From Convolutriloba macropyga (Eukaryota): 64,000 nt of DNA. This document shows positions 26 to 59,577 of the stretch, piece by piece. Where the stretch lies: contig NC_134476.1 of the NCBI RefSeq assembly GCF_964194025.1, positions 4,836,001-4,900,000 of the forward strand, read 5' to 3'. The notes below the pieces were generated by a model, which did not search any database, was not told where the DNA came from, and worked only from the letters and a program-made list of their open reading frames with translations. Position numbers and translations under genes: made by a program. The first letter of the stretch is position 1. Each line of letters starts with the position of its first letter.

Positions 26-145
26 AATTTTCGGGCTGCCAAACTTATTTGTCAAGTAACGTCGGTATGCATACGATGCACTGTTTCAATTTTTGGGCTG
101 CCAAACTTATTTGTCAAGTAACGTCGGTATGCATACGATGCACTG
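26..145. repeat. Two-copy tandem repeat, period 62 bp
   Basis: GGGCTGCCAAACTTATTTGTCAAGTAACGTCGGTATGCATACGATGCACTG starts at 33 and again at 95. Confidence 0.85.
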
Positions 146-1720
146 GAACTTGATTTCAAATTGAGTTGTTTTTGTATTTTCGTCAAGGACAATCCGACAT
201 CTCTTAGCGTAACAACTTGGCCGACAGTGAGAAAACAAAGCAGTTTAACCATGATTTCAGTTTAAACAGAGAAAGTTAGAAGGAAACTTTTCACCCCCTA
301 GCTCAATTCATGTTTATCAAGCACGAATCATGGTTTAAAAGCAGAAATCATAACCATACTATATTGGGAACCATAGTATATTTGCAATTTTGATTACAAT
401 CACTAAAATTCACATTAACCATTTCACAACGTCTATCACAAGTTTTCAAGGCCATTCAAGGCTTTATTGATCTTATAATTTGTGTATGACACATCAGTTT
501 GTTCAAAACTTGCTTCAAAATTAGAATTAAGACTTGGCCGAGTCTTATGAAAAACTTTTTTTGTGTAAAACAAGACTTGACCAGAGTGCAGTCGTTTTTC
601 AGTGCCGATATTAAATACGCGTTTAGACATTCCCAGTACTGATCAGTACTGATACAGACGAGCTTCATAAGTCCAAAAAGCATGTTGGAGTGATTTAGAA
701 GCTTAAAGTCTAGTAAGTTTTGAGTAATTTTACAACAACCGGAATCAATAATGGAGTTAATATTTCCTCAAACTGAGACTTTCTTAGCTGTCGTAGTTAA
801 TTGTAGATTTTCATTTTGATTCTTTTTCAAACCACAATGTCAGTTATAGGCCTTCCCACGCATACATCCTGCTGTTTTTACGTCTTATACAAATTACTGT
901 TTTATAAATTATCGTTTTTTTGTATCCGTACTTTCTGAAGTGGATAAGTTGAGTGAGTGTGCTATTTTTAAGATAATTTTGGTACCCTGTTGCACTTTGA
1001 AATCTTTTTCGCAGCGAATCAGATTTCCTTGATATACTGTAATTGAGCACTCAAATTGCATTTCAATGTTTTTTTTTCAGTTTTGTTTCGCTTTTCCAGC
1101 CGATCGTATGTCAACAAACGCGTCATGATTTTTTGTACTGTAATAGGTTTAACAAAAGCAATAATTGTTATCAATTTATGCTGTAATTGCCAAACAAATG
1201 AAACAAAAGTGACGAAAATACTTTCAGCAAACATTTTACGAAAAAGATAATTATAACCAAAAGATTAAACATAATTGAAGCAAAAAAAATTTAATACAAA
1301 TTATACAAGAATCCATTAACATTACTTGAAACGTGAAATCAAATAATAAAAATTAATTAAAATGATAAATTTGTTGTTTTCTCCTAAAAATAAAAATGTT
1401 TAAGTTATTAATAGAAGTTCCTAAAAAGATTTAGGAACAATGCGTTATAATTTGGCCGTTTTCTGCGCCTTTTTTGCATAATTTCAACTCATTGAACGTT
1501 TATTTATGTACGAAACTTAAACTATAGTCAACAAATTTCTTTAACTAACAACTTTTATAACCTTTGAACAAGGATTGAAAAAACTAATCGCGTGCGTTTT
1601 ATAAAGTCTAGATTATAGTAGTACAACTACTGACATTTGACATTTGAGGACATTAAGGACAATGAACAAAAAATTGAAAAACTTTTGAAGAAATGTCAGC
1701 TAAAACGAAGAAAAACGTAC

Positions 1721-1898
1721 TGTAAGTCTGACACTCGTCGTTTAAACACGTTTTCCACAAACCCAGTGAAAAGTTATAAGAATTATCTCCATTAGTTATA
1801 ACTCCAGTATAACCAGAACACCCATTAGCTCCCAATGACCACAGAAAACTATTGAGCATAAACGAAAAACCAAAAGCAACAATCGAACTTTTTTGCAT
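1721..1898 (-). CDS. Claudin/PMP22-like gene A, exon 1 (no intact downstream exons seen in window)
   Basis: ATG at 1898; MQKSSIVAFGFSFMLNSFLWSLGANGCSGYTG...FSLGLWKTCLNDECQTY, then a phase-1 GTACGT donor at 1720. Same motif and intron position as the other family members. Confidence 0.8.
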
Positions 1899-4252
1899 AA
1901 TTTTGAGGTCAAACTTTAACAACTTAATATTAATCAAATGACAAATTTCAAAATGTGATGTAATTATTATTTTCAATGACATAGTTATTAAGTTCTCATG
2001 TTTTCAGCAATATTTGTTTGACGTTAAAGTTTTAGTAAACAAACAAATATTAACTTGAGCATTTAGCCTTTTTAAGTTAAAGATCAAAAGTTTTGTAACC
2101 AAAAGTTTCTCAGTTAATTCTTATAAATTCTCCTAGTTAGCGCAAAAAAATCTAATGAACTGTCTTTGATAAATAAAAATCAGTTACCGAAATCACAAAA
2201 AAATCGCATTTCATTAACTGATAGATAAAAATTAATTTCGAGCCGAGTCCTAATTTGAAATCGCATTGTCGTTAGCCCAGTAAATATACGAGTATTAATG
2301 AGCAAAAACCTCAATACATGGGATAGAGCATTATAAATATAATTTCAGTTAGGTTGGCTTCTCAAATTTCGAGCAATATAGCGAAACTTGTTTCGAACGA
2401 AATATCCGTACGTAAAAAGACACTGAAAAGCATTTTGATACGCAATTGAATTCGTACCTGAACACATTGGTTAGATATCGTTTTTAAAAAACATGTTCAG
2501 CAATTTTATAAAAACTTCAACAAATGGTTGCGCACGCAAAAAATAAACAGTAGATTGCCGCTTGGAAAATTGAATTGCCCCTGAACAAACTTTCAGGGGC
2601 ACTTAAAAAGTTTATAAAAAAGAGGTTTCTGGTTTTATTGGGTACAATTACTCAAGGACTTCTAACTTTTGCCTGATTAAATTTCAGAAGTTTGTTTTGA
2701 TCTCTGATGTAATTTTGCAATAACGGTGCAACAGTATTACTCAAATAAACGTTTTTTTTCTTACTACTAATTTAAACTAAGAAAACAATGTGAAAATTTT
2801 ACAGTAAATTCAGAACAAAGTACTTTTACTCTGAAACACTGATTTCTCGAATTTTAAACAGACATTCATTTTTTGCTGCATTTAGTTTTGGTGGGAAATT
2901 ATACAGCAGTTTTTGGTGAAAATACACGCGTTGAGCATCTTACCCTGAAAATATATGTCTAATTTTAACATTGATCATATGTTTAAAAAAGTGATTCGTG
3001 AGACCAGCTTATTATCAACTGGAAAAAATAATGAAAGCAGTCTGTTTTGTGACTTGCGATGCAAATCAAATCAGTGCTATTCGTAAACAATCGTTTTCTG
3101 GATTTCTCTCGTTTTTTTGCGAAACACCAAAAATGTTGTAGAATATTAAAAACTGTAAAAAAAGGTTATTTGTTTTTTGGCTTACCTAGGACCCGCTCGG
3201 ATGGTGATGAAAGATTAAAATGGTTTGAAAAATGTTTTAGGCATTCAAAAGATGATATTTCGATTCATAGTCGGATTAATTCTGCTTCATAGTACAGAAT
3301 TTTTTTAAAAAAATTGCATTTTGATTTTAACTAAAAGATATTAAAATACACTTTTAATCCTAGGCTTGATGTTTCTTTTGCCATTTTATACAGCAATTCC
3401 GTCAGTTACTTTTTTCAAACGCTCTCTTTGATGATGTGTCGTAAACAGATTGAAATATGGTTAGACTTTAATGATAATTTAGACGTAATTTAATTTTCAT
3501 TTTAAACCTAGTCCAGCAACTTTGCACTGTCCTGATTGTCAAATTATAGTTGCGTGTTCTTCTGCTCATTCTGTCGGATCCAATGTGTATTAAGTTGCAC
3601 AGTTTTTAACAATTTGGCACTATTTCACACAAATGCGCGCAATTTTGAATCTAATAATTTCTTGTCAGAGCATTTGATTATAGACATTTTTTGTCTGGAT
3701 TATTGACCTGATCTTAGTTACACAAAATTGAATCGTCGCATTTTGTTATTAGAGTCACAAAACTTCACAATCTGATTAATTGCCAATTTTTTGTCTGGAT
3801 CGTCTAGTAATTCCCAATTTCTGTCGTAGTTGTCTAACCCGATTCATATTTACACCATTTAACCATCAATGGCAATTAAATGAATAAAATAACGTAACTA
3901 AACTTCTCCGAAATTAAATTTCAGATAATTTGCTCTTTTTAGCAAAATTTTTTAAGAGAGTGAGAGCAGTTTTTATCTTGCGCTTAAACACTAAACATTT
4001 AATTTGCAATCCCCTTTTGGTTTATCGAAATAAAAAAATTTTAAAATAGAAATTGTGATTCTTGATTTTTCTTGTTTTTCTTGCCAAAAGCCTAAGAACT
4101 TAGGATTTGGTGAAATTTCATGTTAGAGCCCTCAAAACTGGTGAAAGTTGATTGTAAATTACCGCAGCATGTAACTAAGTACATCAAATTGTCAAATACA
4201 ATACTATACTGGCCAATAATTTAAATAAAAACTTAATACAAAATCTTAACTG

Positions 4253-7200
4253 TCAGTATTTGATTTTGACAAGCAGTGCAATGTAAGTTGAAACCATAGC
4301 AGGAACCACTCCGACCCACGGTAAAATCAAACTCCAACCGATTGATGAGTCTGTGTTCTCGGGAACTAGGTCTTTGAGCGCTAATGTCAGACATAAATTA
4401 GCAATAACAAGGAATATGCCTAAAAAAGAAAATTTAATTATCTATTGATTTTTTCTCAAACTTTTAATGGTTAGAAATAACTATGTTGTCTTTTAACATT
4501 GTAACACATTGTAATTCTTATAACTAATCTTCATCTTTATGATAATATTCTTTAATTCATCAGCGTACGCTAGACAAGATTGAATGTTTATCTTGTAAGA
4601 TCTTGCATGATAGTAGTAATACGACGCAGAGGTATACCCCAATACTTCCGCCTTAGTAAACATTGCGCGAATAACAGATACTTGAAATGAAACAAATTAG
4701 GAGACCAGCTTTGTATCTTATTTTTCGCAAAAGGTGTTACGTCACTTTTGCGAATTTAAGACACTTTGAAAATAGTATGCTAGGTGATAGCTGACAATTT
4801 AAAATAGGTGACAAACCTTGTATCACGTTTCCGCTCATTTTCGGTATCTATTTTTTGGATCAAAAAGCATCTCTAATTAAACGCGCGCTTTTTGAGCCTA
4901 ATTAAACGCGCGCTTTTTGTAGCATGCATAAGTGATTTAATACTTTGTAATAAGCCCTTTAATAAAGTTTTTCTTGAGGCTTTTTTTCTTTTAAAGTATA
5001 AAGTTTTTCTTTTAAAGCTTTAAGGTGATTTAAAGACAAATATTAATTACAAACAGCTTTAAATACGAAGTAAATTAAATTTATGTTGAGTGGCAACAAA
5101 TATTATGCTGTACGTCCCAGCGCCACAATAACTGATTTTTTTTTCTGAAAAAATCCTTGCTCAAAAAAAGTTTTGCGCGATGCTAATTTGGGACTGGCCG
5201 AATCTATTTTCACTGGCCGAATCTATTTTGTGGCACATATGGTGTACGTCCCAGCGCCCTTGTATGTGTATGTGGGGATGTGTTTGCTTACACGGATGTT
5301 CGCGTGTACGTGTCTCCATTTGCGTGCGTTTGTTCGCTTTAATTTACCAGTTATCAATTAATAGTTTTAGTAACCACTTTTTCATGCTCAAAATCGCGTA
5401 TTGACTTAGGCCTAATTGCGGATTATAGTGCGAAATCGAGTTATGTTGCGTGCGAAAAAGAGATACATTAATCTAGCACATTCGTGATACATAGCGCGCA
5501 AAAAATAGGTTAAATAGCTTGTATCTCAATTTCGCTGTCAAAATTTGGACAATTTTGCGAAGAAGGTTTGCGCAATTCTCTTCAATTTGGCCTGTTTTTG
5601 CTAAAATAGCTTTTTTTTTCGCAATATTGTTGCATTTTCAATGTATTAACATAGATAAAACGAACAAGAGATACGCAGATTGTGCAGATTTGCCCTTGAC
5701 GTTTTGGGTATACCTCTGCGGCGTAATGAGTGAGAAATTGTTTCCATCAGACAGTCAGACAGTTTTGCCTCATTTTTTCCAGTAAACCTGTGAAAAAATT
5801 TGATTAATTTACTGGGGTGCAAAGCATTTCATTAGCTTTGCAATGTAACCTGACAGGATGACTGTTTACAATTTAACTTTTTTTTCGATAACTATCAAGC
5901 ACGTGTAAGATATTTTGGTTTCCTTTTTTGATTCATTGGTTTCCAAAAGTTTGAATTACATAGATTTTGAGTTTTCAGCTTGTTTTTGATAAAATCTCAA
6001 AGTGTTTCGATTAAAACAACATAATTTCTTTATTTACTACATACTCTACAAGCATGATTTATTTTATATATCATTTCAGGAATTAATGTGTTTTTTCTTA
6101 AATGATGATAATTAGTTATAATAATACCCTGAATCGCAGAGCATGTAATTGAGAGTACAAGAGGTCTGTTTCCTTGAACCGAAGCCAGCATGTACCCCGT
6201 GAAAGCTGCGGCTGCAAATGGACAGAGAGCCATGTAGAAAACTCTCGCTGATTTCATCTTCATCACGAAACTTCGTTCCAGATTGTCAAAATCTAAAGCA
6301 AACAAGACCAATTTTTAGCTTCAATTGTTCATTTCTCGAAAATAGTAAACAGTAACAATTTTTTCCCTATACATGGCTACAAAGTTTTGTTTTTGGCACG
6401 TATTGGAAAAAACAAGCGAAAAAATACAAGCCCAAAGAAATAAAAGTGGAAAATATTTCGGAAAAAAAGATCTGAAAAAAAGATAGGAAAAATTTAGGGA
6501 AGTCTCAGTAAGATCTTTTTCGTCCAAGCTCTGACGATAAGCATTGGGTTATGGTAGTATAAAACCTAATTTCGTGAAAAATATGATCATGCTAGTTTTG
6601 CATGTGCTACCTTTTTGCTACCAATGGTTTCATGCAGTTATTTCAAACTCTGCTCAGTTGTGCAGACGAAAGCATTTTATCCAACTTATAACTGAAGTCT
6701 CAAACAATAATTTGGTATTAATTGTTTTTATCTATTACTGTCTGTAAAAGTAATTCATTGAATCTTTTTTTATTATCTCCTTTTCTAAAAAGAAAAGATA
6801 ACAGATTCAACTAATAGTTTTTTCTTGCCTGACTTTTTTGAGACCTTATCTATATTCGTCGATTTTTACACTTCATGTCGCCTTAAAAAATCTCTATTGT
6901 TAACGACGCTTTTTATTTACACACATTGGCTTTTATTTCAATTTTAAAGGAATGTGTAAATATAAATTTTAATGTGTAAAATGTTAAAGAATATTTTAAA
7001 TGTTAAAGAATATCTTAAATGTTAAAAAAAATTTTAAAGAATTAAATCAGAATAATTTTGCAGTTTGCAATTTTTAAATTGAAAATACTGAAAACTGAAA
7101 ATACTGAAAAAATTGTGAATAAACTAGCATTCTGAAGATGCATTTTAAATCTAGACATTTGTCTTTAATTTGCTAGCTTAGTGACGATAGATGTTTCTCC

Positions 7201-8402
7201 TTTTTCACTACACGAGGTTTTGTTTCGATCCTTTGAAAGTAATTTTAGGCGGTAATTCAAGACGCGACATCATAATAGATGATACTTTAATTGAGTAGGG
7301 AGATACAGCAGTGCAATGATGAGAGCTTAAATACTGTTTTTGCTGATGACAAATAATCTCAGCAGGTTTTCAGCAAAAAAATGTTTTTTTTTTAGATGGG
7401 AACATGATGCAGCAGTGTAAGCTGCACTTTATTAAATGATTTGTAACTTTAAAAAATGGAATTTATCATCAAGTTTTCATGAGAACTCAATATTATTTTG
7501 GCTAATGATACTAGAATTATAGACAAAAAAATAAATGCATTTGAGAGTGGTCAGAAAAAAGCGTCCATTGAGTTCAATTTTTTTTTCACCTTCTATATGA
7601 AAAGTAGACAAACTTCAGTGCAACGTTTTTCTTATTTGACTCTAGGCATTGCAAACAACCGATTGAGTCCAAATATTTTGGTATAAAATTTAATGAATAT
7701 TATAGATTCAAACAGCCAAATCCGTTAGGAGATGAATATTGGCTAAATTTTCTCGACTAGGAGAAAAAAGTTCAAAAGTTTCCGGTAAAAATCAATCAAT
7801 TTTTAAATGTGATTGTACAATTTATGGTGGCGCCACAACAACTGATTGTCCAAACTACAAAATTAAATACTTATTGTATTGTTGGTACAATTTGTTGTGA
7901 AAATATTTTTTTCAGTGCAATTTAAGATATTAAATCTAAAATAGGCATCAAATTTTCAGCTTTGTTTTTATCAGATTTTGCTCGGAAGATTTATTGATTG
8001 CTCTTTGTTTGATTGACAGTTAAAAGAACCTGCCTACAGAAGAAAGCAACCTTCATCATCAAGGCTTTTTCGCATGACAATCACTTAGTTCTCAGCTAAT
8101 GAGACATAATTGTTTGTCAAACGAAGTTTTTCAGTTTTTAAGTTTTTCCGTTTCTAAGTTTTTTACTGGCAGAAAAACATTAAGAATCACTGTTTGATAT
8201 GGTTTGGCATAAAATCAAATTTGAAATTCTGTTTTGACTGTTTCTGCAGTTGTATATCCGTCAAAATCTGAACTGATAAATGGATTGCACAGCCCAGAAT
8301 TTGAGACAGAAAGAATAGATCCGAAAAATGAACACCCGAGCGCCGCATTTCAGCTCATTATTGACAAAACTTCGTTGTTTATTGTACGTTTCATTGAAAG
8401 AC

Positions 8403-8458
<56 letters not shown>

Positions 8459-8827
8459 TAGATAGAAGTGAAGTTTTCATAAGCTATGTTTTTTTAGCTC
8501 AACTTTGTCATGGAAATGTGTTTTTCAGTGACCTTTACTCTGTTAAGTATTTTAGAAAACGTTGACTTTCAGAGACACAAAATCACGATAGCATTGATAA
8601 GCAGGCCTAAATCAGTCTGGATTTTGATGACGTCATATCTTACCATATTTGTAACATTTCTCATTCTCGCAGTATTTCCACAACCCATAGGAGTATTCGA
8701 CAAGGAGAAATGGCTCGCTGATAAAACCAGTGTATCCAGACTTCCCATTAGCCAAAAGTGCCCACAATAAACTGGACAGAACAAGACCCCCTCCTATTGA
8801 AATTAACAATCGACGTTTTTCCATCAT
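4253..8827 (-). CDS. Claudin/PMP22-like gene B, 171 aa; exons 8827-8644, 6292-6128, 4419-4253
   Basis: GT-AG phase-1 introns; 184+165+167=516 nt open frame. TM1, YSYGLWKYC-x4-C loop, TM2, TM3, IGWS before TM4, ends VKIKY-stop. Confidence 0.9.
4621..5724. mobile_element. Non-autonomous TIR DNA transposon in intron 2 of gene B
   Basis: ACGACGCAGAGGTATACCCCAA at 4621 is an inverted match to TTGGGTATACCTCTGCGGCGT ending at 5724. Short TSD readable as AAT or TA. No ORF; internal GTACGTCCCAGCGCC repeats. Mirror copy begins near 63084. Confidence 0.6.
8406..8456. repeat. (TA)n microsatellite
   Basis: Direct TA dinucleotide run in gene B intron 1. Confidence 0.95.
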
Positions 8828-9414
8828 TTTGACGATTTTTGATATTTATTTATGACTAAAATTCTATAGTTAGTTATTTCAAATCGTTTATGACTACAAT
8901 TGCGACTTTAATAACTAAAGTGTACATCAATTTAAAGAGTTATATTTATTTAAACTTTGAAGTGAACTCGCCTGATTAACTTTTGTTGGTTAGTGGTGTT
9001 TGTTGAAGTCAATTTAATGCGTTGGCTCTTTTTAACTTTCCGTAAACTTTTCATAATTAGTTCATTTTGGTTCTGTTATAACTAGTAAAATGTCATGGAA
9101 TCAATGCCCGTTTTGAATTTTACAACTTGTTGGTTGTTAAATAATTGGCAAAATAACAAAGCTTATCGTATTTTGAAATAACTTAGCAGATCAGTGAACT
9201 GTAATTTGATATAAAAACAAATTAATTTTTCGAAGAATTTAAGCAATCGAACAATCAGGTCTATTTCATATCGTTGTTTTCTGTTATTATTCATTATGCG
9301 CCTCTGCGTGATAGTAAAAATTGAGAAATTTAGAAACTAGTACTATGGTCTCAAATACGACAAAAATCATTCACAAAATTAAATTTGGATGTTAATGCTA
9401 TATATAAAACAACA

Positions 9415-9545: not shown

Positions 9546-11354
9546 TGCGATATTAACGATCACTATTTTTCTTACAAAACACGGTACAGATTTTCAATGA
9601 AAGAGAAAGCAAACGTATTCCAGGTAAATAAGAGATTACGAAATAACAGCAATTTATACAAATTTGTTTAAGAAAAAAGACCATTGAGCTCCTTGCACCG
9701 TGACAGTTTTGTACCATGTCAGTTTTGACGTTTGCCCAATGAGTTCAAGAGAAGAACCAAGAATTTGAATATTAAGTATGAACAGACGAAATTCGAGAAT
9801 AGTTATCTCTGAGGCCAGGTGTGAATTTCAGAGGAGCACAGAGCAAATTTTAGTGAATCACCGCAACATTATCACACAAAACTTTATAGTATGATTGAGA
9901 TAATTTAAGAACTTCACAGAAAAAAACTAGGAGTATTGCTGCAATTTTAAGAGTATCGCAGAGATATCTTCTGAATATCACTAAGCATCTTTGAGAGCAT
10001 CACAGAAAAATCTTCACAACAAATTTTAATCAACTCTCGTTGCGATAACAGCAGTATTGTAACTTACTGTTGAAAGAAACATGATAAGCCCCATTTAATA
10101 AAATTTGCTTCATCATCAGGCGACGAGTTTAGCATACTATTTTATCACCACTGTTACTAGTAGTAGTATGTGAGCAGAGCTGGGGGGGGGGGGGGTAAAA
10201 GGACGTACCTATGTATAAAGATTACCTATAGCTTATTTTCATCAATTTTCCAAAGACGTACCTAAAATAGAGAGTGAGAACAATAGAACTGTCATCTTAT
10301 CGTAATTACCCAGGGGTAATTATCTTAATTACCCCAGGGAAATGCATCCGCTCTAATGCACTTCAGCTAATCTTATCTACTTAATAAAATATATCTGCAG
10401 AATTTTTTCTTTCATTCACTTCATTTACGCATAACTTTTTCAATTATCCAAGTTTTAGTTTTTGATTATTAATGAAGTTTTGGTTCGAATAATTTCAATA
10501 TATTGAAAATTTTTCACAAAATCTTCTGTAAAATCTATTTTTGAAAATTTCATTTTTTAACTTTTTTTTACTCCTGATGATATGAAAGTATGCAAGACTT
10601 TTTGGCAGTTTCTTTTCGTAGTTTCTGGTTTATTTCTCAGTAGTTTCAGTTTCGCAAACCCGAAACCATGAACAAATTTTTTCAGATAATGATGTTCAAA
10701 TAATCGATTAAAATTTTTTAACTCAGATTTCGTTGAAAAATACTAAAGCACAGAAAACCATCACTGAAAATTTTTTTGTTTTTTCACAGTTTCAGATTCT
10801 GAAACCTCAAACTAAAAATTTTTTTGGTCGAAAATGTATACTACAGTACAACTTTAGAGGGTATTTTTCGAAGTGGAATTCAATGGCGGTAATTTCACGG
10901 TCAATTGTAGATTATGGGTTTGGGTTTTATGTAGTTTTAGTTTCTCAAACATCAAACTACAAAAAATTTTCTTCGAGAATGGTAACTTATATCATCACTC
11001 TATATGTTGTTTTTAAACAATGCATTTGATAGTGATTTATTTGACCCTAAGAAGTTACAATTTTTGGGTTTTTGCGAAGTTTCAGCTTCTGAAACCTGAA
11101 ACCTCGAACTATTTTTTTTGGAATTTTGTGTTACAGTACATCTTTATAGCGTAATTTCTAACGCAGAATTTAATGGATACAATTTAAAAGTCGTAAAAAG
11201 AGGACAAGTTTTCATTTTTCGAAGTTTTGGATTCTGCAACCTGAAACCTGAATTTTTTTTTGGATTTGTGTGTTACAGTACATCTTTATATTGTAATTTT
11301 TCAGGCCGAATGCAGAGGGCATAATTTATAAGTCATTGCTAAAGTAAAAGTTCT

Positions 11355-11870
11355 TGGAAAAAATACCCAATTATTGCCAAAAATTACCCAATTATTGCCG
11401 AAAAAACCCAAATATTGGCAAAAAAATCCCAAATTCTTGAAAAAAAACAAACACTCAACCAATGTGAAAAATTCCCAACTATTGCCAACAGAGCCCAGGT
11501 CTTGGTGAAAAACACCCAATTCTTGACCCAAAATATCCAATTATTGTCAAAAAACTCAAATGTTACCAAAAAATATCAAACTGTTGTAAAAAAAAACAAT
11601 TCTAGCCCAAGATTATCTGTTTCTAGTAATGAATTACACAATTCATAGCAAAAATACACATTTATTACCACAATCTACTAAACTTTTGCCAAATATACCT
11701 AATTCCTGCGACAAGGAACGCAGTTCTAGTAAAAATATCCCAATACTTGCCACACCGAGACACAAGTGTCGCCAAAAATACCCATTTTTACCACAAAATA
11801 GCAAAATCTTGTCAAAAAATACCCAAATTGTAACCAAAATAACAAAATTGTATCAAATATTTATCTAAAA
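11355..11870. repeat. Degenerate ~21-bp minisatellite in left arm of element
   Basis: Iterated AAAAATACCCAATTATTGCCA-like units; mirrored at ~21620-22135. Confidence 0.75.
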
Positions 11871-12088
11871 TATATCAAAAATTAGACAATCTTGCCATCA
11901 TCCGTTTTTCTCTAATTTCTTATCAACAATCCAAGTATTTAGTGACCTTAAAACATCAACTTTTGAGATCATCTTTTGTAAAGACGAATCTTCTCAGGTG
12001 ATCGATATAGGTTTAATGAGTACAAATTTGTCACGAATTTATTGCTATTGTACAGAATTAATCGTTAAAAGTTCAGTCATAGTAATTT

Positions 12089-12376
12089 AACAATTACGTA
12101 CTACTATCTTCTCAATTAAGAACAATTACGTGATCATTTTGTGTAAGAGGGCCACTCACCTCTTTGGAACAAAATTTACTCCAGCTACGTCATATGATTG
12201 CTTCAATTAGGGATACCTATGTATTGTATGGGGTCACTGAACTCATGTGAACATAAAATAATCCTTACTACTTACGATATTATTCCTATTTTATCAAAGC
12301 ATGCACAGCTCACGTGCTTGAAGTCTTACTCATAGTATTGTAACAATTACGTCACTATTGCGTCATAATGATGTCA
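12089..12376 (+). promoter_or_regulatory. Putative promoter with clustered ATF/CRE-like sites and an E-box
   Basis: AACAATTACGT three times (12089, 12121, 12342), TACGTCA 12186, CACGTG 12311 and TGCGTCA 12359, directly upstream of the cargo gene; mirrored in the right arm. Confidence 0.35.
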
Positions 12377-12552
12377 TTTTTTTATTGTAGTGCACAAACA
12401 AAAATTCAACTCATTGCGCTTATTTTCGTTCTGTTCAACAACTTAGCTATAATTAGACTTTTTCATTTTTTTCGGAGACAAGTTTAATCTCCTTTTCCTA
12501 CAAACCTAAGTTTTCAGTTATAAACCTTTCAGTGGAGATTCTTCATCTCTAG

Positions 12553-13661
12553 GACATCTTCCTATTTCCCATTCCAGGTAAGTCACCTCTGTCATAGAAT
12601 ACGAAAACAGACCAAAAAAGAATAATAAGGGGCTATTATAATCATCGTACTCATTCGCAAATAGCATATTATTTTTTCAGAGAGAAAGTTTTTTTCAATA
12701 TCTGTATTTTCAATTTATTTAGGACTTCAACCGTCGTCACCTAAAAAAGGCTGGAATAATGAATATCAAATCTGTGAAATTGAACGAAAATCTTAAGGCC
12801 CACTTCTTCTTCCCCGATTTCAATGATGATGTAGCAATTATAAAGGAGAGGAAGACGTGCTTCGGCTGGGTAGCTGAACCTCCATTCTGCATTCCGAGGC
12901 AGCTTCTGGTCTTCATTATTGCAATCGAGAATTTGCCAGAAGTTTCTGTTCCATACCAACAGAAAACTGTAGACTTCTACGAGAACCACATCGAAAACAA
13001 AACTTTACAAGTCTCAGACAACATGGAACTGAGAAGATCAGTTATTGCACAATTTTGTGATTATGAGTTGTTCTATAGACCAATGTATGAAAATCAATTA
13101 GGATTTTATGAGGAGGAGAGGGAACTTAAATTTCTCTGGTGTGTGTCTGACGAGTATGACCATTTGCAGGAGCAGAAACCTGATCGGGATTGTGACGAGT
13201 GGGAAAATGGGTCATTGACAGGGAGTATTATCGCAATTATAGAAGAAGAGAACGCACTTGATCCCAAGTTAGACAACAAAAAATCTGACCAGGCAGTCCC
13301 TTTTGCGTAATTTTCTACAGACACTGGACAAGATGCAATGAAAGAAGTACAGGGAGCATCGAGTGTTGAAAATACTTCAATCAAGTCTGCCAGAACCATC
13401 CTTAGTACTGTACTCAATGATTATACAGATTACCAAGATCATATTTTATCTAATGAAGCAAGTGAAAAAATATCTGAAAAAACTTCCCTTAAATCTGAGC
13501 AACCAGCATCTTGTACACAAACGACTGTCAAGAGAAGGGCTCCTGCTGTCAATAACCCTGAAAGAGTGGGAAGTAAAAATTTAGATGGTGATGAAAACAA
13601 AGACAACTTGTGTCCTCCATCGTGCAAATTGAGACAAGCTGCTGAGTTGTATAGTACCTAA
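12553..13661 (+). pseudogene. Spliced cargo gene of unknown function (~300+ codons, one in-frame TAA)
   Basis: ORFs 12759-13310 and 13338-13661 are in the same frame, separated by one TAA. The frame is open back to a TTTAG acceptor at 12722. A 25-nt exon 12553-12577 (AG...CAG/GTAAGT) splices in frame. Confidence 0.6.
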
Positions 13662-16008
13662 ACTAACAGGCTGAGAAGTAATTTTTTTGACTGATTATCT
13701 GTTTGTATTTCCGGTATAATTTCAGATCCAAAAACTATTATTTCCTGAGGTGACTAATTGACTGTTTAATTTGTAATATCTCTTTTTTACACTCAGAAAA
13801 AGCTGAATTTCATGTATGCTTTTGAATTGATACTTTGATAAAATAATTTATTTGAGTTTTACAAATGCAATTTTCGAAATTAACTTTTATTTCAAGTTCA
13901 TATTTGAATTAAAATTTATGTCAAAAAATGCCTGTTTTTGTAATATCTGTTTTTTTCTCAAAAATGGCGGTTAACGACAAAAAAGGCTTGTTTTCATAAA
14001 ATTTTTTTTCAAAAACGCGGGTTTTTTGGCTTCTGCAATGAACTCCCGGCAGCTGATACTGGATGACGCAAAACGATTACAGTGATAATTTCGAAGCAAA
14101 CTCCAGCAGCAATTCTTCCCATCAGAATATTGCAATAAGCGTGCTGCCTTTGATAATAGATTACCTGGTCATTTAAAAGAAGAATTTTTGGCAGGAATTT
14201 TTAGAAACAGATACTCATACAAATCTTTAGGTATAGAATTTACCATTTTTAAAAAAAAGTTGAAAACCTTTTGCATAATTTTTTAATGTTTAGAAAAAAT
14301 ATTCTTTTACTATCCCATTTTTTTCAAAGAAGTCGTTTTTTTACAAAAGGTTTCTTTTTTCATTTTTCCATTTGTCAGTTTTTGAAGTTTTTTAATGTGA
14401 AGTTTTGAATTGAATCATTGTTTTAAATGAAAATCTTTCTTACTAAAATGATTTTCTTTGAAAATTGTTGTGTTTTACACACTGTTTTTAACAAAAATAT
14501 AAATCTTGATGTTTTTTTAATTTTTTATTTCTCCTTTTTTTTCTGTTTTTTTTAATGTAAAAATTTAATTTTAATTAATTTTTTTTTTGAAAAAACAAAA
14601 TTTTACTAGAATAATCTTTCTTTCAAAAATGCCTTTTTTTCATAAGGTTTTAAACAAAAAATGCAAATTGTGTTGTTTTTTATTGTTTTATTTTTCCTTT
14701 TTTTCTGTTTTTGAATTTTTTAACGTAAAATTTTAAGTTTTTTTTTCGAAAGAATTTGTTTTTACTAAAAAAAATTTCTGTCAAAAATGCCGTTTTTTAC
14801 ATAAGGTTTTTAACAAAAAATGCAATTTGTGTTGTTTTTTATTTTTCTATTTTTCCTTTTTTCTGTTTTTGAATTTTTTTTATGTAAAATTTTAAATTTT
14901 TTTTTCGAAAAATCTTGTTTTACTAAAAAAAATTTCTGTCAAAAATGCCGTTTTTTACATAAGGTTTTTAACAAAAAATGCAACTTGTGTTGTTTTTTAT
15001 TTTTCTATTTTTCTTTTTTTCTGTTTTTGAATTTTTTAATGTAAAATATGAAATTTAATTAATTTCTTTTTGAAAAAACAAATTTTACTAGAATAATTTT
15101 TTTTTCAAAAATGCCGTTTTTTACATAAGGTTTTAAACAAAAAATGCAACTTGTGTTGTTTTTTTATTTTTCTATTTTTCATTTTTTTCTGCTTTCGAAT
15201 TTTTTTATGTAGAATTTAATTCTTTTTTGAACAAACAAGTTTTACTAGAATAATTTATCTTTCAAAAATGCCGTTTTTTACATAAAGTTTTTACCAAAAA
15301 AAGCTATTTTTGTTTTTTAATTTTCTATTTTTTAGTTTTTGAATTTTCTTATTGAATTACTTTTTTTTCTTAAAAATGTTGTTTTCTTAAATATTTTTTG
15401 GCAAAAATGCCGTTTTTTACATTATGTATTTAACAAAAAATGTGAATTTTGTTGTTTTTAACTTTTCTGTTTTTCCTTTTTTCAGTTTTGGAAGTTTTTT
15501 TTGTAAAATTTTTAATTTAATTTTTTTTTGAAAAAACATTGTTTTAGTAAAACAATTTTTTTCCAAATGTCGTTTTTTGCATAATATTTTCAACAAAAAA
15601 TGTAAGTTTGATGTTTTTTTCTTTTTCGATTTTTTAATTTTTCAGCTCTTGATGTTTTTTTGCAATTTCTTTAGCAAAGCAGAAAATTGTAAAAATCAAT
15701 GTATTACAATTATTACAAAAATCAATTATTTATTACAATTATTTATTACAAATTAATACATTTATTAATAAAATTTGCGGAAATCTATAACAAATCAAGC
15801 TTTTGATGACAAGCATATTTGTTTGAATTTTATCATTTTAAACAATTACATTTTTATTGATATCATGTTCTTCTTGAGAAATTCCGATTTATTCATCGTC
15901 TCGTGATAAAAATACTTCAGAGTAAACCCTGGGGTACCGGTGTCGCGTGGTGACAATTACTGGCTTCAAGCATCCCTAGCGTGCATCTCTGGATGTTGTT
16001 CGGAAATT

Positions 16009-16065
16009 AAAGATCGTTGGGCGCGCAGAACGCGCCTCGCGGCAGAGCCGCGATCAACGATCTTT
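16009..16065. other. GC-rich Y-shaped (three-way) hairpin, copy 1
   Basis: Stem AAAGATCGTTG/CAACGATCTTT with ears GGCGCG-CAGAA-CGCGCC and TCGCGGC-AGA-GCCGCGA. Confidence 0.8.
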
Positions 16066-17587
16066 TAAAAACTGAAAAACTGAAAAATGTCTTCCAAAAC
16101 TGAAAAAAGGAAAAACAGAAAAGTAAAAAACAACAAAATTCACATTTTTTGTAAATTACATAATGTAAAAAACGGCATTTTTTGCCAAAAAATGTTTTAG
16201 AAAACAACATAATAAAAAAAATAATTCAATAAAAAATTCAAAAACTGAAAAATAGAAAAATAAAAAACAACACAAGTTGCATTTTTTGTTTAAAAGCTTA
16301 TGTAAAAAACGGCATTTTTGAAAAAAAAAACATTCTAGTAAAACTTGTTTTTTCAAAAAGGAAATTAATTAAATTTCCTATTTTCCATTAAAAAATTCAA
16401 AAACAGAAAAAAGGAAAAATAGAAAAATAAAAAACAACACAAGTTGCCTTTTTTGTTAAAAACCTTATGTAAAAAACAGCATTTTTGACAGAAATTTTTT
16501 TTAGTAAAACAAAATTTTTTAAAAAAAAAATTTAAAATTTTACATAAAGGTTTTAAACAAAAAATGCAACTTGTGTTGTTCTTCATTTTTTATTCTTCCT
16601 TTTTTTTCTGTTTTTGAATTTTTTCATGTAAAAGTTTAAAATTTTTTACTCAAAAAATTTTGTTTTACTAAAAAAAATTTCTTTCAAAAATGCCGTTTTT
16701 TACATAAGGTTTTAAACAAAAAATGCAACTTGTGTTGTTTTTTTATTTTTCTATTTTTCATTTTTTTCTGCTTTCGAATTTTTTTATGTAAAATTTAATT
16801 CTTTTTTGAACAAACAAGTTTTACTAGAATAATTTATCTTTCAAAAATGCCGTTTTTTACATAAAGTTTTTACCAAAAAATGCTATTTTTGCTTTTTAAT
16901 TTTCTATTTTTCAGTTTTTGAATTTTTTATTGAATTACTTTTTTTTTCTTAAAAAATGTTGTTTCCTTAAACATTTTTTGGCAAAAATGCCGTTTTTTAC
17001 ATTATGTATTTAACAAAAAATGCGAATTTTGTTGTTTTTAACTTTTCTGTTTTTCCTTTTTTCAGTTTTGGAAGTTTTTTTGTAAAATTTTTAATGTAAT
17101 TTTTTTTTGAAAAAAGATTGTTTTAGTAAAACAATTTTTTTCCAAATGTCGTTTTTTGCATAATATTTTACACAAAAAATGTAAGTTTGATGTTTTTTCT
17201 TTTTCGATTTTTTAATTTTTCAGCTCTTGATGTTTTTTGCAATTTCTTTAGCAAAGCAGAAAACTGTAAAAATCAATGTATTACAATTATTACAAAAATC
17301 AATTATTTATTACAATTATTTATTACAAATTAATACATTTATTAATAAAATTTGCGGAAATCTATAACAAATCAAGCTTTTGATGACAAGCATATTTGTT
17401 TTAATTTTATCATTTTAAACAATTACATTTTTATTCATATCATGTTCTTCTTGAGAAATTCCGATTTATTCATCGTCTCGTGATAAACATACTTCAGAGT
17501 AAACCCTGGGGTACCGGTGTCGCGTGGTGACAATTACTGGCTTCAAGCATCCCTAGCGTGCATCTCTGGATGTTGTTCGGAAATTAT

Positions 17588-17640
17588 AGATCGTTGGGCG
17601 CGCAGAACGCGCCTCGCGGCAGAGCCGCGATCAACGATCT
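17588..17640. other. GC-rich Y-shaped hairpin, copy 2
   Basis: Same ears; stem AGATCGTTG/CAACGATCT; direct repeat of copy 1 at an offset of 1577 bp. Confidence 0.8.
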
Positions 17641-19849
17641 CTTAAAAACTGAAAAACTGAAAAAAGTCTTCCAAAACTGAAAAAAGGAAAAACAGAAAAG
17701 TAAAAAACAACAAAATTCACATTTTTTATAAATTACATAATGTAAAAAACGGCATTTTTTGCCAAAAAATGTTTTAGAAAACAACATAATAAAAAAATAA
17801 TTCAATAAAAAATTCAAAAACTGAAAAATAGAAAAATAAAAAACAACACAAGTTGCACTTTTTGTTATAAACCTTATGTAAAAAACGGCATTTTTGACAG
17901 AATTTTTTTTAGTAAAACAAAAATTTTCGAAAAAAAAATTTAAAGTTTTACATAAAAAAATTCAAAAACAGAAAAAAGGAAAAATAGAAAAATAAAAAAC
18001 AACACAAGTTGCTTTTTTTGTTAAAAACCTTATGTAAAGAACGGCATTTTTGAAATAAATTTTTTTTATTAAAACAAAATTTTTCCAATAAAAATTTTTA
18101 GAATTTTACATGAAAAAAATCAAAAACAGAAAAAAAAGGAAAAATAAAAAATGAAGAACAACACAAGTTGCATTTTTTGTTTAAAACCTTATGTAAAAAA
18201 CGGCATTTTTGAAAAAAAAAATTATTCTAGTAAAACTTGTTTTTTCAAAAAGGAAATTAATTAAATTTCCTATTTTCCATTAAAAAATTCAAAAACAGAA
18301 AAAAGGAAAAATAGAAAAATAAAAAACAACACAAGTTGCTTTTTTTGTTTAAAACCTTATGTAAAGAACGGCATTTCTGAAATAAATTTTTTTACTAAAA
18401 CAAAATTTTTCGAATAAAAAATTTTAGAATTTTACATGAAAAAAATCAAAAACAGAAAAAAAAGGAAAAATAAAAAATGAAGAACGACACAAGTTGCATT
18501 TTTTGTTTAAAACCTTATGTAAAAAACGGCATTTTTGAAAAAAAAATTATTCTAGTAAAACTTGTTTTTTCAAAAAGGAAATTGATTAAATTTCCTATTT
18601 TCCATTAAAAAATTCAAAAACAGAAAAAAGGAAAAATAGAAAAATAAAAAAAAACACAAGTTGCCTTTTTTGTAAAAACCTTATGTAAAAAACAGCATTT
18701 TTGACAGAAATTTTTTTTAGTAAAACAAAATTTTTCGAAAAAAAATTTAAAATTTTACATAAAAAAATTCAAAAACAGAGAAAAAGGAAAAAAACAACAC
18801 AATTTGCATTTTTTGTTAAAAGCCTTATGAAAAAAATGCATTTTTGAAAGAAAAATTATTCTAGTAAAATTTTGTTTTTTCAAAAAAAATTAATTAAAAT
18901 TAAATTTTCACATAAAAAAATTAAAAAACAGAAAAAAGGAGAAATAAAAAATAAAAACCATCAAGATTTATATTTTTGTTAAAAACAGTGTGTAAAACAC
19001 AACAATTTTCAAAAAAAAAATCATTTTAGTAAAAAAGATTTTCATTTAAAAAAATGATTCAATTCAAAAATTCATATTAAAAAACTTCAAAAACTGACAA
19101 ATGGAAAAATGAAAAAAGAAACCTTTTGTAAAAAAACGACTTCTTTGAAAAAAATGGGATAGTAAATTATACAGTAAATTATACAGCAAAAATGGGATAG
19201 TAAATTATATAGTCAAAACAGTAAAAAATTATGCAAAAGGTTTTCAACTTTTTTTTTTTAAAAAATTGTAAAATCTATACTTAAAGATTTGTATGAGTAT
19301 CTGTTTCTAAAAATTCCTGCCAAAAATTCTTCTTTTAAATGACCAGGTAATCTATTATCAAAGGCAGCACGCTTATTGCAATATTCTGATGGGAAGAATT
19401 GCTGCTGGAGTTTGCTTCGAAATTATCACTGTAATCGTTTTGCGTCATCCAGTATCAGCTGCCGGGAGTTCATTGCAGAAGCCAAAAAACCCGCGTTTTT
19501 GAAAAAAAATTTTATGAAAACAAGCCTTTTTTGTCGTTAACCGCCATTTTTGAGAAAAAAACAGATATTACAAAAACAGGCATTTTTTGACATAAATTTT
19601 AATTCAAATATGAACTTGAAATAAAAGTTAATTTCGAAAATTGCATTTGTAAAACTCAAATAAATTATTTTATCAAAGTATCAATTCAAAAGCATACATG
19701 AAATTCAGCTTTTTCTGAGTGTAAAAAAGAGATATTACAAATTAAACAGTCAATTAGTCACCTCAGGAAATAATAGTTTTTGGATCTGAAATTATACCGG
19801 AAATACAAACAGATAATCAGTCAAAAAAATTACTTCTCAGCCTGTTAGT

Positions 19850-20935
19850 TTAGGTACTATACAACTCAGCAGCTTGTCTCAATTTGCACGATGGAGGACA
19901 CAAGTTGTCTTTGTTTTCATCACCATCTAAATTTTTACTTCCCACTCTTTCAGGGTTATTGACAGCAGGAGCCCTTCTCTTGACAGTCGTTTGTGTACAA
20001 GATGCTGGTTGCTCAGATTTAAGGAAAGTTTTTTCAGATATTTTTTCACTTGCTTCATTAGATAAAATATGATCTTGGTAATCTGTATAATCATTGAGTA
20101 CAGTACTAAGGATGGTTCTGGCAGACTTGATTGAAGTATTTTCAACACTCGATGCTCCCTGTACTTCTTTCATTGCATCTTGTCCAGTGTCTGTAGAAAA
20201 TTACGCAAAAGGGACTGCCTGGTCAGATTTTTTGTTGTCTAACTTGGGATCAAGTGCGTTCTCTTCTTCTATAATTGCGATAATACTCCCTGTCAATGAC
20301 CCATTTTCCCACTCGTCACAATCCCGATCAGGTTTCTGCTCCTGCAAATGGTCATACTCGTCAGACACACACCAGAGAAATTTAAGTTACCTCTCCTCCT
20401 CATAAAATCCTAATTGATTTTCATACATTGGTCTATAGGGCAACTCATAATCACAAAATTGTGCACGTTCCATGTTGTCTGAGACTTGTAAAGTTTTGTT
20501 TTCGATGTAGTTCTCGTAGAAGTCTACAGTTGTCTGTTTGTATGGAAGAGAAACTTCTGGCAAATTCTCAATTGCAATAATGAAGAACAGAAGCTGCCTC
20601 GGAATGGAGAATGGAGGTTCAGCTACCCAGCCGAAGCACGTCTTCCTCTCCTTTATAATTGCTACATCATCATTGAAATCGGGGAAGAAGAAGTGGGCCT
20701 TAAGACTTTCGTTCAATTTCACAGATTTGATATTCAGCTTTTTTTAGGTGACGACGGTTGAACTCCTAAACAAATTGAAAATACAGATATTGAAAAAAAC
20801 TTTCTCTCTGAAGAAATAATATGCTATTTGCGAATGAGTACGATGATTATAATAGCCCATTATTTTTCTTTTTTGGTCTGTTTTCGTATTCTATAACAGA
20901 GTTGACTTACCTGGAATGGGAAATAGGAAGATGTC
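19850..20935 (-). pseudogene. Mirror copy of cargo gene, further disabled
   Basis: Shares the GCG-TAA stop; adds an 8-nt deletion removing the ATG, a 15-nt in-frame deletion (MELRRSVIAQ to MERAQ) and GAA>TAA at 20387-20389. Confidence 0.65.
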
Positions 20936-23900
20936 CTAGAGATGAAGAATCTCCACTGAAAGGTTTATAACTGAAAATTTAGGTTTGTAGGAAAAGGAGA
21001 TTAAACTTGTCTCCGAAAAAAAATGAAAAAGTCTAATTATAGCTAAGTTGTTGAACAGAACGAAAATAAGCGCAATGAGTTGAATTTTTGTTTGTGCACT
21101 ACAATAAAAAAACGACATCATTATGACGCAATAGTGACGTAATTGTTACAATACTATGAGTAAGACTTCAAGCACGTGAGCTGTGCATGCTTTGATAAAA
21201 TAGGAATAATATCGTAAGTAGTAAGGATTATTTTATGTTCACATGAGTTCAGTGACCCCATACAATACATAGGTATCCCTAATTGAAGCAATCATATGAC
21301 GTAGCTGGAGTAAATTTTGTACCAAAGAGGTCAGTGGCCCTCTTACACAAAATGATCACGTAATTGTTATTAATTGAGAAGATAGTAGGACGTAATTGTT
21401 AAATTACTATGATTGAACTTTTAACGATTAATTCTGTACAATAGCAATAAATTCGTGACAAATTTGTACTCATTAAACCTATATCGATCACCTGAGAAGA
21501 TTCGTCTTTACAAAAGATGATCTCAAAAATTGATGTTTTAAGGTCACTAAATACTTGGATTGTTGATAAGAAATTAGAGAAAAACGGATGATGGCAAGAT
21601 TGTCTAATTTTTGATATATTTTAGATAAATATTTGATAAAATTTTGTTATTTTGGTTACAATTTGGGTATTTTTTGACAAGATTTTGCTATTTTGTGGTA
21701 AAAATGGGTATTTTTGGCGACACTTGTGTCTCGGTGTGGCAAGTATTGGGATATTTTTACTAGAACTGCGTTCCTTGTCGCAGGAATTAGGTATTTTTGG
21801 CAAAAGTTTAGTATATTGTGGTAATAAATGTGTATTTTTGCTATGAATTGTGTAATTCATGACTAGAAACAGATAATCTTGGGCTAGAATTGTTTTTTTT
21901 TACAACAGTTTGATATTTTTTGGTAACATTTGAGTTTTTTGACAATAATTGGATATTTTGGGTCAAGAATTGGGTGTCTTTCACCAAGACCTGGGCTCTG
22001 TTGGCAATAGTTGGGAATTTTTCACATTGGTTGAGTGTTTGTTTTTCAAGAATTTGGGATTTTTTTGCCAATATTTGGGTTTTTTTCGGCAATAATTGGG
22101 TAATTTTTGGCAATAATTGGGTATTTTTTCCAAGAACTTTTACTTTAGCAATGACTTATAAATTATGCCCTCTGCATTCTGCCTGAAAAATTACAATATA
22201 AAGATGTACTGTAACACAAAATTCCAAAAAAAATAGTTCGAGGTTTCAGGTTTCAGAAGCTGAAACTTCGCAAAAACCCAAAAATTGTAACTTCCTAGGG
22301 TCAAATAAATCACTATCAAATGCATTGTTTAAAAACAACATATAGAGTGATGATATAAGTTACCATTCTCGAAGAAAATTTTTTGTAGTTTGATGTTTGA
22401 GAAACTAAAACTACATAAAACCCAAACCCATAATCTACAATTGACCGTGAAATTACCGCCATTGAATTCCACTTCGAAAAATACCCTCTAAAGTTGTACT
22501 GTAGTATACATTTTCGACCAAAAAAATTTTTAGTTTGAGGTTTCAGAATCTGAAACTGTGAAAAAACAAAAAAATTTTCAGTGATGGTTTTCTGTGCTTT
22601 AGTATTTTTCAACGAAATCTGAGTTAAAAAATTTTAATCGATTATTTGAACATCATTATCTGAAAAAATTTGTTCATGGTTTCGGGTTTGCGAAACTGAA
22701 ACTACTGAGAAATAAACCAGAAACTACGAAAAGAAACTGCCAAAAAGTCTTGCATACTTTCACATCATCAGGAGTAAAAAAAAGTTAAAAAATGAAATTT
22801 TCAAAAATAGATTTTACAGAAGATTTTGTGAAAAATTTTCAATATATTGAAATTATTCGAACCAAAACTTCATTAATAATCAAAAACTAAAACTTGGATA
22901 ATTGAAAAAGTTATGCGTAAATGAAGTGAATGAAAGAAAAAATTCTGCAGATATATTTTATTAAGTAGATAAGATTAGCTGAAGTGCATTAGAGCGGATG
23001 CATTTCCCTGGGGTAATTAAGATAATTACCCCTGGGTAATTACGATAAGATGACAGGTCTATTGTTCTCACTCTCTTTTTTAGGTACGTCTTTGGAAAAT
23101 TGATGAAAATAGGCTATAGGTAATCTTTATACATAGGTACGTCCTTTTACCCCCCCCCCCCCCCAGCTCTGCTCACCTACTACTACTGTTACTATATAAA
23201 CGGTGGTAATGAAAGAGTGCGGCAAACTCGACAACAGTGTGACTATCTTCAAATCATCTGCCTCTGTGGTAGTCTTAATAGTCTTAATTTACTATGTGGT
23301 ATAAGTTATGCAGCTTTTATGAAAGCAACAAGATTTGATTTAAAACATTAAACGGAGTGGTTTAAACAATATGGCTTTCTATTGGAGTTTGATAACTTTT
23401 GGGTGGCAATAATAATAACTTTGCTGCAGCTAATATTGTCACAAAAGAGTTTCACAGAGCAAACGTCATTATGAATAAATGTCCAAAGGATGAATTGAAT
23501 TGAAGGGATTACAAAAAAAGATAAATTTCTTTCCGCATATTCAACCATTATCTTCTTCAACCACATAAACGCAACGCCAAATAGAGTCCAAGAAAAAATT
23601 GTTTTGTTGTATTAATTGAGCAGTCTTTTAAACAACTTCGATAACAGCAAACCAATGAATGTAAAACTTTTATAACTTTTATTCAGGCAAATCTTAACGG
23701 AAAAGCAATAATCTGCAAACAAGACCCAACTCATCTGTGATTTGTCTACAAAAATTGAAGTCTGAAACACTATTTTGATTTCATCCTTGATTTATTATAC
23801 TTGACTCAGTATAAGTCAGGTTTTTATAGTTGAATGGTTTTCGTTACAAAATGTTTCAGATTTTCATCTACGTTCTGCTTTGTTTTAGCTCTGTCTAGTG

Positions 23901-24617
23901 AATTCTGATTAATACAGAACTCTATACAATACATGTGTTAAACTCGACAAAAGAATAATTAAACATCTAAGCAGTTTTTTTCCATAATTTAAGCCAAAAT
24001 AAAATAAGTGACTCCTTCAAATCTGTTGTGTTAGGAGGTCATTTTGGAAGAGTATTTTACCGTTTGAGATGTCCGCATATGAAAATCCAATTAAAAGAAT
24101 TATTATAAATTTGGAATTTTGAGAAAAACTGTTCACTATTTTCGCTCTTGAAAGATTATGACATTAAGGCATAAATAAATGTGTTTTGTAGATAAATGTG
24201 AGTCCTCCCCTGCCCAATTTGTACAAGAGAGTTGTAAGATTGCTTTCAATGTCTCAAAGGAAACATTTGTGACTGAAACAAAATCCTATGATTACATGCT
24301 CTTGAAAGAGATGCAATATTGTCAATTCTTAGAACTCCTAAGTAAATTTAATTAGTTTGTATGATGAATAAAATTGTTAAATTTGCAAGTTCAAAATTGT
24401 AAGATAATTTTGTATGAAAATTAGACTATTTAATTGTCAAGTTCATAATCAGCATTCATAAAAGATTTATTTGTCCTCCGACAGTTTAGCATTTTCCGCA
24501 TAAGATGAATTAATTGCTCTTTTTTAGTCAGAGGAGGTTTCGTGATCGTTGTTTGACAGGGTTGCGTAATCTCAGTTTGATCGGTTTACATAATCACTGT
24601 CTGTTCGGGTTACGTAA

Positions 24618-59529: not shown

Positions 59530-59577
<48 letters not shown>

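Follow-up and report, generated by a model that had tools for sequence, protein, structure and literature searches.

The replication of Polintons has been modelled but, to our knowledge, never observed, and non-autonomous Polintons were reportedly named by Kapitonov and Jurka in 2006. Among other protein-primed replicons, the subgenomic molecules of phi29 are palindromic. The adenovirus/AAV hybrid mini-genomes of Lieber 1999 and Sandalon 2000 are said to carry duplicated protein-primed ends around an AAV hairpin, and reportedly were engineered and Rep-assisted. Mavericks are defined, in a section of PMC8097293, by (AGT)2//(ACT)2 termini and a 6-bp target-site duplication (TSD), and some pPolBs are known to carry a VSR domain, according to part of PMC10748475. 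In AAV design a plain closed end can replace the T-shaped hairpin (cceAAV, in a passage of PMC10881427).

Here we describe a palindromic Polinton/Maverick satellite from Convolutriloba macropyga, first seen as a T/Y-shaped hairpin (the T hairpin) that occurs twice in a 64,000-nucleotide stretch, the whole of the DNA analysed and referred to as the window. We report its ends and TSDs, a complete helper sharing those ends, its exact axis, the conservation of the hairpin and breakpoints at the hairpin loops. A literature search at title and abstract level turned up no account of Polinton derivatives that are palindromic about a T-shaped axis.

The hairpin and the element in the window

The earlier note, made from the letters of the window, described a two-eared hairpin with a stem of 9-11 bp, present twice, and the coordinates and folds bear this out. 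In copy 1 an 11-bp stem (16009-16019/16055-16065) carries ears at 16020-16036 and 16037-16053, with T16054 unpaired. The stem of copy 2 is 9 bp (17588-17596/17632-17640), the ears are 17597-17613 and 17614-17630, and the unpaired base is T17631. All four ears are 17 nt long, and each copy leaves a single T unpaired. The description as a GC-rich island in AT-rich DNA is also accurate, the GC content being 0.61 compared to 0.18 for the satellite. Folding as ssDNA and as RNA, which that note had proposed as a check, gives a strong structure both ways. The ssDNA values are -26 to -28 kcal/mol (z -7.1 to -9.0) for both strands of both copies, in every case with none of 200 shuffles as stable, and the RNA z values are -5.6 to -7.3.

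On the minus strand both ears had been read as 7-bp stems, one of them with a G-T pair. This holds with RNA parameters, under which each ear is a 7-bp stem with a loop of 3 nt and a G-U pair closes one of them, whereas DNA parameters shorten the G-T-bearing ear to 6 bp and widen its loop to 5 nt. The G-T pair arose by mutation at this locus and is confined to it; the two window copies have A at 16030 and 17607 where 33 of 35 aligned copies have G, and those 33 have two perfect 7-bp ears, scattered single changes aside. A scan of 10000-24000 with the Rfam 15 covariance models, to E 5, gave one chance match (S15 leader, E 3.8) and no ribozyme or other family, and the candidate of a known ribozyme or structured RNA was rejected.

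Table 1. Features of the palindromic element, in window positions
Feature	Position	Strand	Remarks
Left target-site duplication, 6-bp GTTACT	10153-10158	+	End reading
Whole palindromic Polinton/Maverick satellite, 13,029 bp	10159-23187	.	Termini AGTAGTAGT...ACTACTACT
Left TIR	10159-10420	+	91-97% identity to TIR of complete 14.6-kb Polinton
20/21-bp subterminal repeats	11351-11860	+	About 70% like repeats at the helper's polymerase-side end
Short helper remnant from just upstream of pPolB frame	12330-12380	+	76-83%
ORF, about 300 codons, function unassigned	12759-13661	+	One stop at codon 184, in both arms
Helper remnants	14054-14292	+	pPolB 3' end 14054-14187 (75%); intergenic DNA after pPolB 14201-14292 (77%)
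About 158-bp AT-rich satellite array, left arm	14351-15660	+	71-74% to the helper's other subterminal array
About 350-bp spacer, lineage-A-specific	15661-16008	+	No helper match; mirrored around the T hairpin in undamaged copies
Direct tandem duplication	15092-17781	+	Offset 1577-1579 bp; outer limits blurred by satellite
Hairpin copy 1, T/Y-shaped	16009-16065	.	Original axis of palindrome
One-sided deletion junction	16067-16069	.	13 nt past three-way junction; mirrored spacer lost
Hairpin copy 2, T/Y-shaped	17586-17642	.	Duplicate
About 158-bp satellite array, right arm, reverse orientation	17647-19121	-	
Mirror copy of ORF, broken	19850-20743	-	1.6% divergent from left copy
Right TIR	22926-23187	-	Inner limit inferred by symmetry
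Right target-site duplication, 6-bp GTTACT	23188-23193	+	End reading

Self-comparison of the window reveals mirror arms that span 10159-23187 (Table 1). The axis of this copy is rearranged, one arm having been deleted 13 nt past the T hairpin before a tandem duplication of about 1.58 kb doubled it. The order follows from the two window copies themselves; they have the same junction and the same ear change, and the duplicates, in which spacer, hairpin and junction are all doubled, are 97-100% identical over 15701-16200. The earlier note placed the hairpin at the edge of a unique spacer, where the satellite flips. The 158-bp satellite does flip there, but the spacer edge is secondary since undamaged copies carry the spacer mirrored on both sides and have the hairpin as their exact axis. 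Contrary to a further suggestion of that note, the hairpin did not cause the fold-back at this site, as the whole family is palindromic.

An older inverted duplication of host DNA spans the window (1-9300 and 24574-64000) and continues beyond it, with 80-98% identity and a centre near 39023-39901, an N run. The Polinton satellite lies in one arm only, and the mirrored host arm is too diverged for the empty insertion site to be read. The host duplication includes repeated exons bearing a G-L/M-W-K-x-C motif reminiscent of claudins (Pfam PMP22_Claudin at no better than E 0.38), and its right arm contains a 1.3-kb direct tandem duplication (59573-62260, 98.7% identity).

A family of palindromic elements

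In the 1.18-Gb genome the hairpin has at least 40 close matches (40 of 77 candidates scored), a 23-mer of the spacer adjoining it lies at 101 places and the arm ORF has at least 151 matches (150 of 1018 candidates scored). The T hairpin is the exact mirror axis in 21 of 30 loci from the hairpin search, the sequence after it being the reverse complement of that before. Eight of the other nine have a one-sided deletion beside the hairpin and one is at a contig end. All 13 spacer- or hairpin-anchored sites that were fetched (L186-L197, L205) lie within a family palindrome, so the earlier note was right to tie the hairpin to inversion axes, and independent dispersal is not seen. When ten elements were extended by 10 kb on each side their arms reached shared ends. 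Undamaged copies are wholly palindromic elements of about 12-13 kb with the T hairpin as exact axis.

The ends identify the family. Fourteen palindromic elements with both ends have 6-bp TSDs, perfect in ten, with one mismatch in three and two mismatches in one. The window element has (AGT)2//(ACT)2 termini (AGTAGTAGT/ACTACTACT) and AGTAG starts nearly all ends. Together with a TIR in common with an autonomous element, these are the attributes of a non-autonomous Polinton/Maverick derivative. Autonomous genes (pPolB, integrase, ATPase, capsid) are absent from the satellite, which has one ORF per arm with no Pfam match and a 134-bp pPolB remnant.

An artefact of assembly or of fold-back reads is rejected for the family by the TSDs, by arms that are 0.3-6% apart and by the many different centres; contigs of public runs also contain the spacer and the hairpin. 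L123 and L124, whose arms differ by 0.11% and whose centres have a gap, may still be artefacts. Assembly gaps at the axis occur in many copies. L126 and L127, sisters in the tree, lie on different contigs; each is one arm adjoining a gap of 200 Ns at the hairpin, and the two are possibly one element split by the assembly. Ear 1 is shortened in three copies; as a mark of lineage this was rejected in favour of recurrent slippage.

The earlier note also raised the possibility that the hairpin is the end of a nested element. It was never found outside the family and is absent from helper and pPolB loci. A covariance model run on 56 loci (helper, pPolB, lineage B and others) found no diverged T hairpins. 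A loose two-ear pattern, which cannot match the T hairpin itself, gave 14 places, and the seven fetched have no T hairpin and no arm match. It is very improbable that the hairpin is the captured end of a parvovirus-like virus or other element, nested at the centre. The shape is like the AAV ITR tip, as depicted in part of PMC11575299, and neither the 350-bp spacer nor the hairpin has a helper match. Against capture, the hairpin never occurs outside the palindrome, has no match in viral or metagenome contigs and no flanking duplication, and the spacer is mirrored around it as the arms are. A parvovirus NS1 search of the genome gave no match, with the controls equally silent. A different repeat family of at least five copies (L198-L202) starts with a short GC-rich hairpin, and in L199 such a hairpin is present at both ends of a MITE-like inverted repeat of about 480 bp.

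A complete Polinton with the same ends

The terminal 26-mer of the satellite has 100 exact genomic matches. Ten TIR pairs were fetched, six belonging to palindromes and four to non-palindromic elements of 14.5-15 kb, which we term helpers. Two of the four were scanned for ORFs and encode an A32 ATPase, an rve integrase, an adenain-like protease (E 0.003) and a frame of about 1,200 aa with zinc fingers and matches, below the cut-off, to DUF559 (E 3.5e-5) and DNA_pol_B_2. Two further ORFs, with no Pfam match, we read as capsid genes; no Rep-like family was found in the ORFs scanned. Two accessory ORFs of one helper (L091:1290-1898 and 2207-2956) have no Pfam match and a pattern that is PC4-like by eye. 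Matches to pPolB number at least 77 in the genome; many of them lie in frames open for more than 1,000 aa, and the Polinton load is large and recent.

The satellite and the four helpers have a TIR of 225-260 bp in common, with 91-97% identity. Three terminal variants of 23 nt recur without a difference in both helper and satellite copies, a sharing that suggests exchange of ends. More generally, the first 23 nt or so of the TIRs come in several variants, mostly the same at both ends of an element and common to helper and satellite. Through the TIR, the 21-bp repeats and a piece from upstream of pPolB, the arm follows the order of the helper's polymerase-side end. At the position of pPolB it has instead an unrelated ORF, followed by the pPolB remnant and downstream DNA. 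The spacer and the T hairpin have no counterpart in the helper, and the hairpin is absent from the complete 14.6-kb Polinton.

Two tips and the arms

In an unrooted tree of 115 ORF copies a single branch with 100/100 support separates lineage A (59 rows), recognized by the T hairpin or its spacer, from lineage B (30 rows), the remaining 26 rows having unknown centres. All 19 scored lineage-B copies have a plain AT-rich triloop tip within the satellite, and the one lineage-B copy checked at both ends has a perfect TSD. Lineage B is therefore palindromic without the hairpin, which is lineage-specific and dispensable for the palindromic form. Many lineage-B copies (L107, L108, L111, L114, L116 and others) keep a 1-2-nt mismatch about 20 bp from the plain tip, in fixed linkage to the orientation of the loop and erased in L109, L159 and L163. 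It is an inherited unpaired site, reminiscent of poxvirus hairpins.

In 33 of 39 pairs the nearest sequence to an arm is the other arm of its own copy, and subfamily changes are present on both arms up to the T hairpin. No left/right difference, of the kind that would mark flip/flop inversion of the ears, is kept consistently across the 24 lineage-A copies tried, one of which gave no alignment. Changes private to a copy but present on both arms look neutral (omega about 0.92, with eight stops), whereas those in at least three copies give omega of about 0.55. Because the private changes look neutral, the likeness of the arms perhaps reflects gene conversion after insertion and not the copying cycle; repair of a folded strand, or the copying of just one arm, would fit it as well as such conversion does.

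The arm ORF has distant relatives at 28-39% identity but no family match. It matches nothing in Pfam, no PDB sequence and no helper gene. A single-sequence fold of the whole has pLDDT of 31; residues 1-60 are modelled as four strands and a helix with pLDDT 57-77. Three fold searches with these residues gave a best Z of 5.4 and Foldseek E values of 0.08 (PDB) and 0.005 (viral), and PC4/Pur-like single-strand binders top or populate all three, none significantly. A PC4/Pur-like N-terminal domain is only a lead from this predicted model. A Rep/HUH domain was rejected, Pfam and PDB sequences giving no match and the low-confidence model being a small beta-sheet, as was a Rel/NF-kB dimerisation domain, which had an Atlas score of 0.80 only and no support in the fold searches.

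Conservation of the hairpin

Does the hairpin serve the element or is it simply carried? The sequence is conserved, in line with the role that the earlier note had given it. Variants common to at least four copies occur at none of the 63 positions of hairpin plus stem, against 15 of 156 and 19 of 200 adjacent positions (Fisher p 0.005-0.007). Most hairpin copies were found with the hairpin as query, which favours conserved ones, and the query-independent test is weaker: in eight diverged copies found through the ORF or TIR the hairpin differs at 14/285 positions (4.9%) and the neighbouring GC-rich arm at 114/1248 (9.1%), p 0.018. In twelve close copies the difference is not significant (p 0.08). 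These comparisons are moderate evidence that the hairpin is under constraint. Compensatory change, proposed in the earlier note as a test of the structure, is absent, with none of 28 pairs changed on both sides in 27 distinct sequences from one genome, and selection on structure and selection on sequence are therefore not distinguishable.

A doubtful though serious alternative is that the hairpin arose once in the template switch that founded lineage A, or provoked it, and has been carried without function as a frozen scar. The lack of covariation agrees with this, as does a sister lineage that is mobile without the hairpin. Both arms and the ears are undeleted in only one of 23 lineage-A copies that were found by ORF or TIR and have sequence across the centre, and protein-primed phi29 yields subgenomic molecules that are attributed, in part of PMC4974454, to template switching. 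A scar accounts less well for a hairpin and stem without subfamily variants when about 10% of flanking positions have them, though we caution that the hairpin is CpG-rich. In addition, for a fragile structure to persist in copies with 10-15% divergence, it must confer an advantage or mutate more slowly.

Breakpoints at loops and in the stem

Breakpoints were read in 29 lineage-A loci found by ORF or ends, leaving out of the ear count six with gaps or contig ends, three that lost the whole hairpin, three with short ear slips and one undeleted. Twelve long deletions end inside ears, ten of them within 1 nt of the loop (p 1e-4), and in 11 of the 12 the retained arm ends at the nearer ear. With five further copies found through the spacer, 13 of 17 ear deletions end within 1 nt of the loop (p 6e-5); the interval around the loop was chosen after seeing the data, and the L119 breakpoint was read by eye from a messy junction. 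Microhomology blurs other breakpoints by 1-3 nt. In contigs of public runs, fold-back joints fall at two positions, 16029 and 16043, each at a loop. A second cluster comprises 16 loci, 12 of them found with the hairpin as query, that keep the hairpin and break 11-21 nt from the three-way junction on either side, 12 breaking at 13-17 nt.

The earlier note had supposed a pause, template-switch or nicking site, and breakpoints do cluster at the hairpin loops and stem. The central deletions end at ear loops or within the stem at 11-21 nt, from which we conclude that the ears likely fold and are cut. At the deletion junctions there are short microhomologies or small insertions, which we read as products of end-joining. 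Hairpin opening by the host is the simplest cause of the breakpoints, and host nicking occurs near capped ends. The loop breakpoints point to a DNA structure and so make it extremely improbable that the hairpin acts as an RNA element. Equally good folding as RNA fits that idea, as do ORFs that converge on the centre, from which read-through transcripts would form one giant RNA hairpin with the T hairpin at its tip; against it, no Rfam family matched.

The stem cluster bears on another possibility, that the hairpin sets the place of a site-specific nick in the stem, about 14 nt along, as at the parvovirus terminal resolution site. The helper's Vsr-like polymerase domain, or Rep in trans, would make the cut, and the two-armed form would alternate with a resolved single arm. 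The concentration of breaks at 13-17 nt on either side and the sub-cut-off DUF559 match of the helper pPolB are in its favour, but we consider such a resolution site quite unlikely. The breakpoints are spread over 11 nt in the first A/T run, which microhomology joining and host nicking near capped ends would also hit. The scanned helper ORFs include no Rep-like family, the arm ORF models (at low confidence) as a small beta-sheet and not an HUH domain, and lineage B is without such a site. The specific version in which the helper polymerase's Vsr-like nuclease nicks the hairpin some 14 nt down the stem, switching a hairpin-closed single arm to the integrating two-armed form and back, we regard as unlikely. 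If true, it would join two replication logics, protein-primed outer ends and a parvovirus-like central hairpin, and provide the first substrate for the Polinton polymerase nuclease.

A proposed cycle

At the mirror axis of this wholly palindromic, non-autonomous Polinton/Maverick of 13 kb stands the conserved T hairpin, and we consider it probable that it acts as the closed turn-around end of a fold-back form. The helper's protein-primed polymerase would start at either AGT end, and the displaced strand would snap back to a duplex of about 6 kb closed by the hairpin, the open end of which is again an origin. The polymerase could then copy round the hairpin, remaking the two-armed duplex that the helper integrase would insert. 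The hairpin would serve as a stable, short-looped cap that selection keeps in lineage A, and a plain triloop could take its place. Within the chromosome the axis would extrude, be cut at the ear loops or about 14 nt down the stem and be end-joined; such cutting and joining may have given the one-sided deletion in the window, before the tandem duplication doubled the hairpin. No extrachromosomal or replicating form was seen. On the best reading, the element is a snap-back satellite of a Polinton and the hairpin its closed-end cap, maintained by selection, with a role in nicking unproven. A palindrome family with two natural tips and dozens of dated break products gives concrete Polinton replication intermediates to seek, the one expected being a hairpin of about 6 kb with a single protein-linked open end. 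The family is also a genome-wide record of host cutting sites on T-shaped DNA hairpins.

Comparison with known systems

The stem, two GC-rich ears, 3-nt loops and one unpaired junction base resemble the T/Y hairpins of parvoviruses as they appear in parts of PMC11575299 and PMC3004791, and as there both orientations are present on the two strands. Membership of the parvoviral ITRs, to which the earlier note likened the hairpin, does not follow from that shape. The hairpin is not terminal but at an internal axis some 6 kb from both ends, the ear pairs show no covariation, and the element has no NS1/Rep or capsid genes. Hairpin priming is not needed in the satellite because its ends are TIRs.

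With phi29 the satellite shares a protein-primed replicon that gives shorter molecules derived from one end, and convergent transcription units (in part of PMC4974454). The phage molecules are transient, whereas the satellite family is stable, integrating and diversified.

The closest relatives are Polintons/Mavericks (polintoviruses, adintoviruses) and their non-autonomous derivatives, which, in the sections of PMC8097293, PMC10748475, PMC6431247 and PMC8502044 that treat them, likewise have AGT-repeat ends and a 6-bp TSD. The TIR in common with a complete Polinton, a size near that of the helper and the pPolB remnants agree with this placement. The satellite differs in having no polymerase, integrase or capsid gene, with one unrelated ORF per arm, and in being wholly palindromic about a T-shaped axis.

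In architecture the satellite resembles self-complementary AAV, with its central mutant ITR, and the snap-back genomes of AAV. In both, mirror arms are joined by a T-shaped hairpin and a strand folds on itself into a duplex closed at one end, as described in parts of PMC10881427 and PMC8235507; lineage B, with its plain closed tip, is naturally like cceAAV. Unlike these, the satellite has protein-primed Polinton TIRs and not Rep origins as its outer ends, its ears are 7 bp, no Rep-binding or resolution site has been shown in it, and it is natural and integrated. The satellite is a natural counterpart of the self-complementary AAV design.
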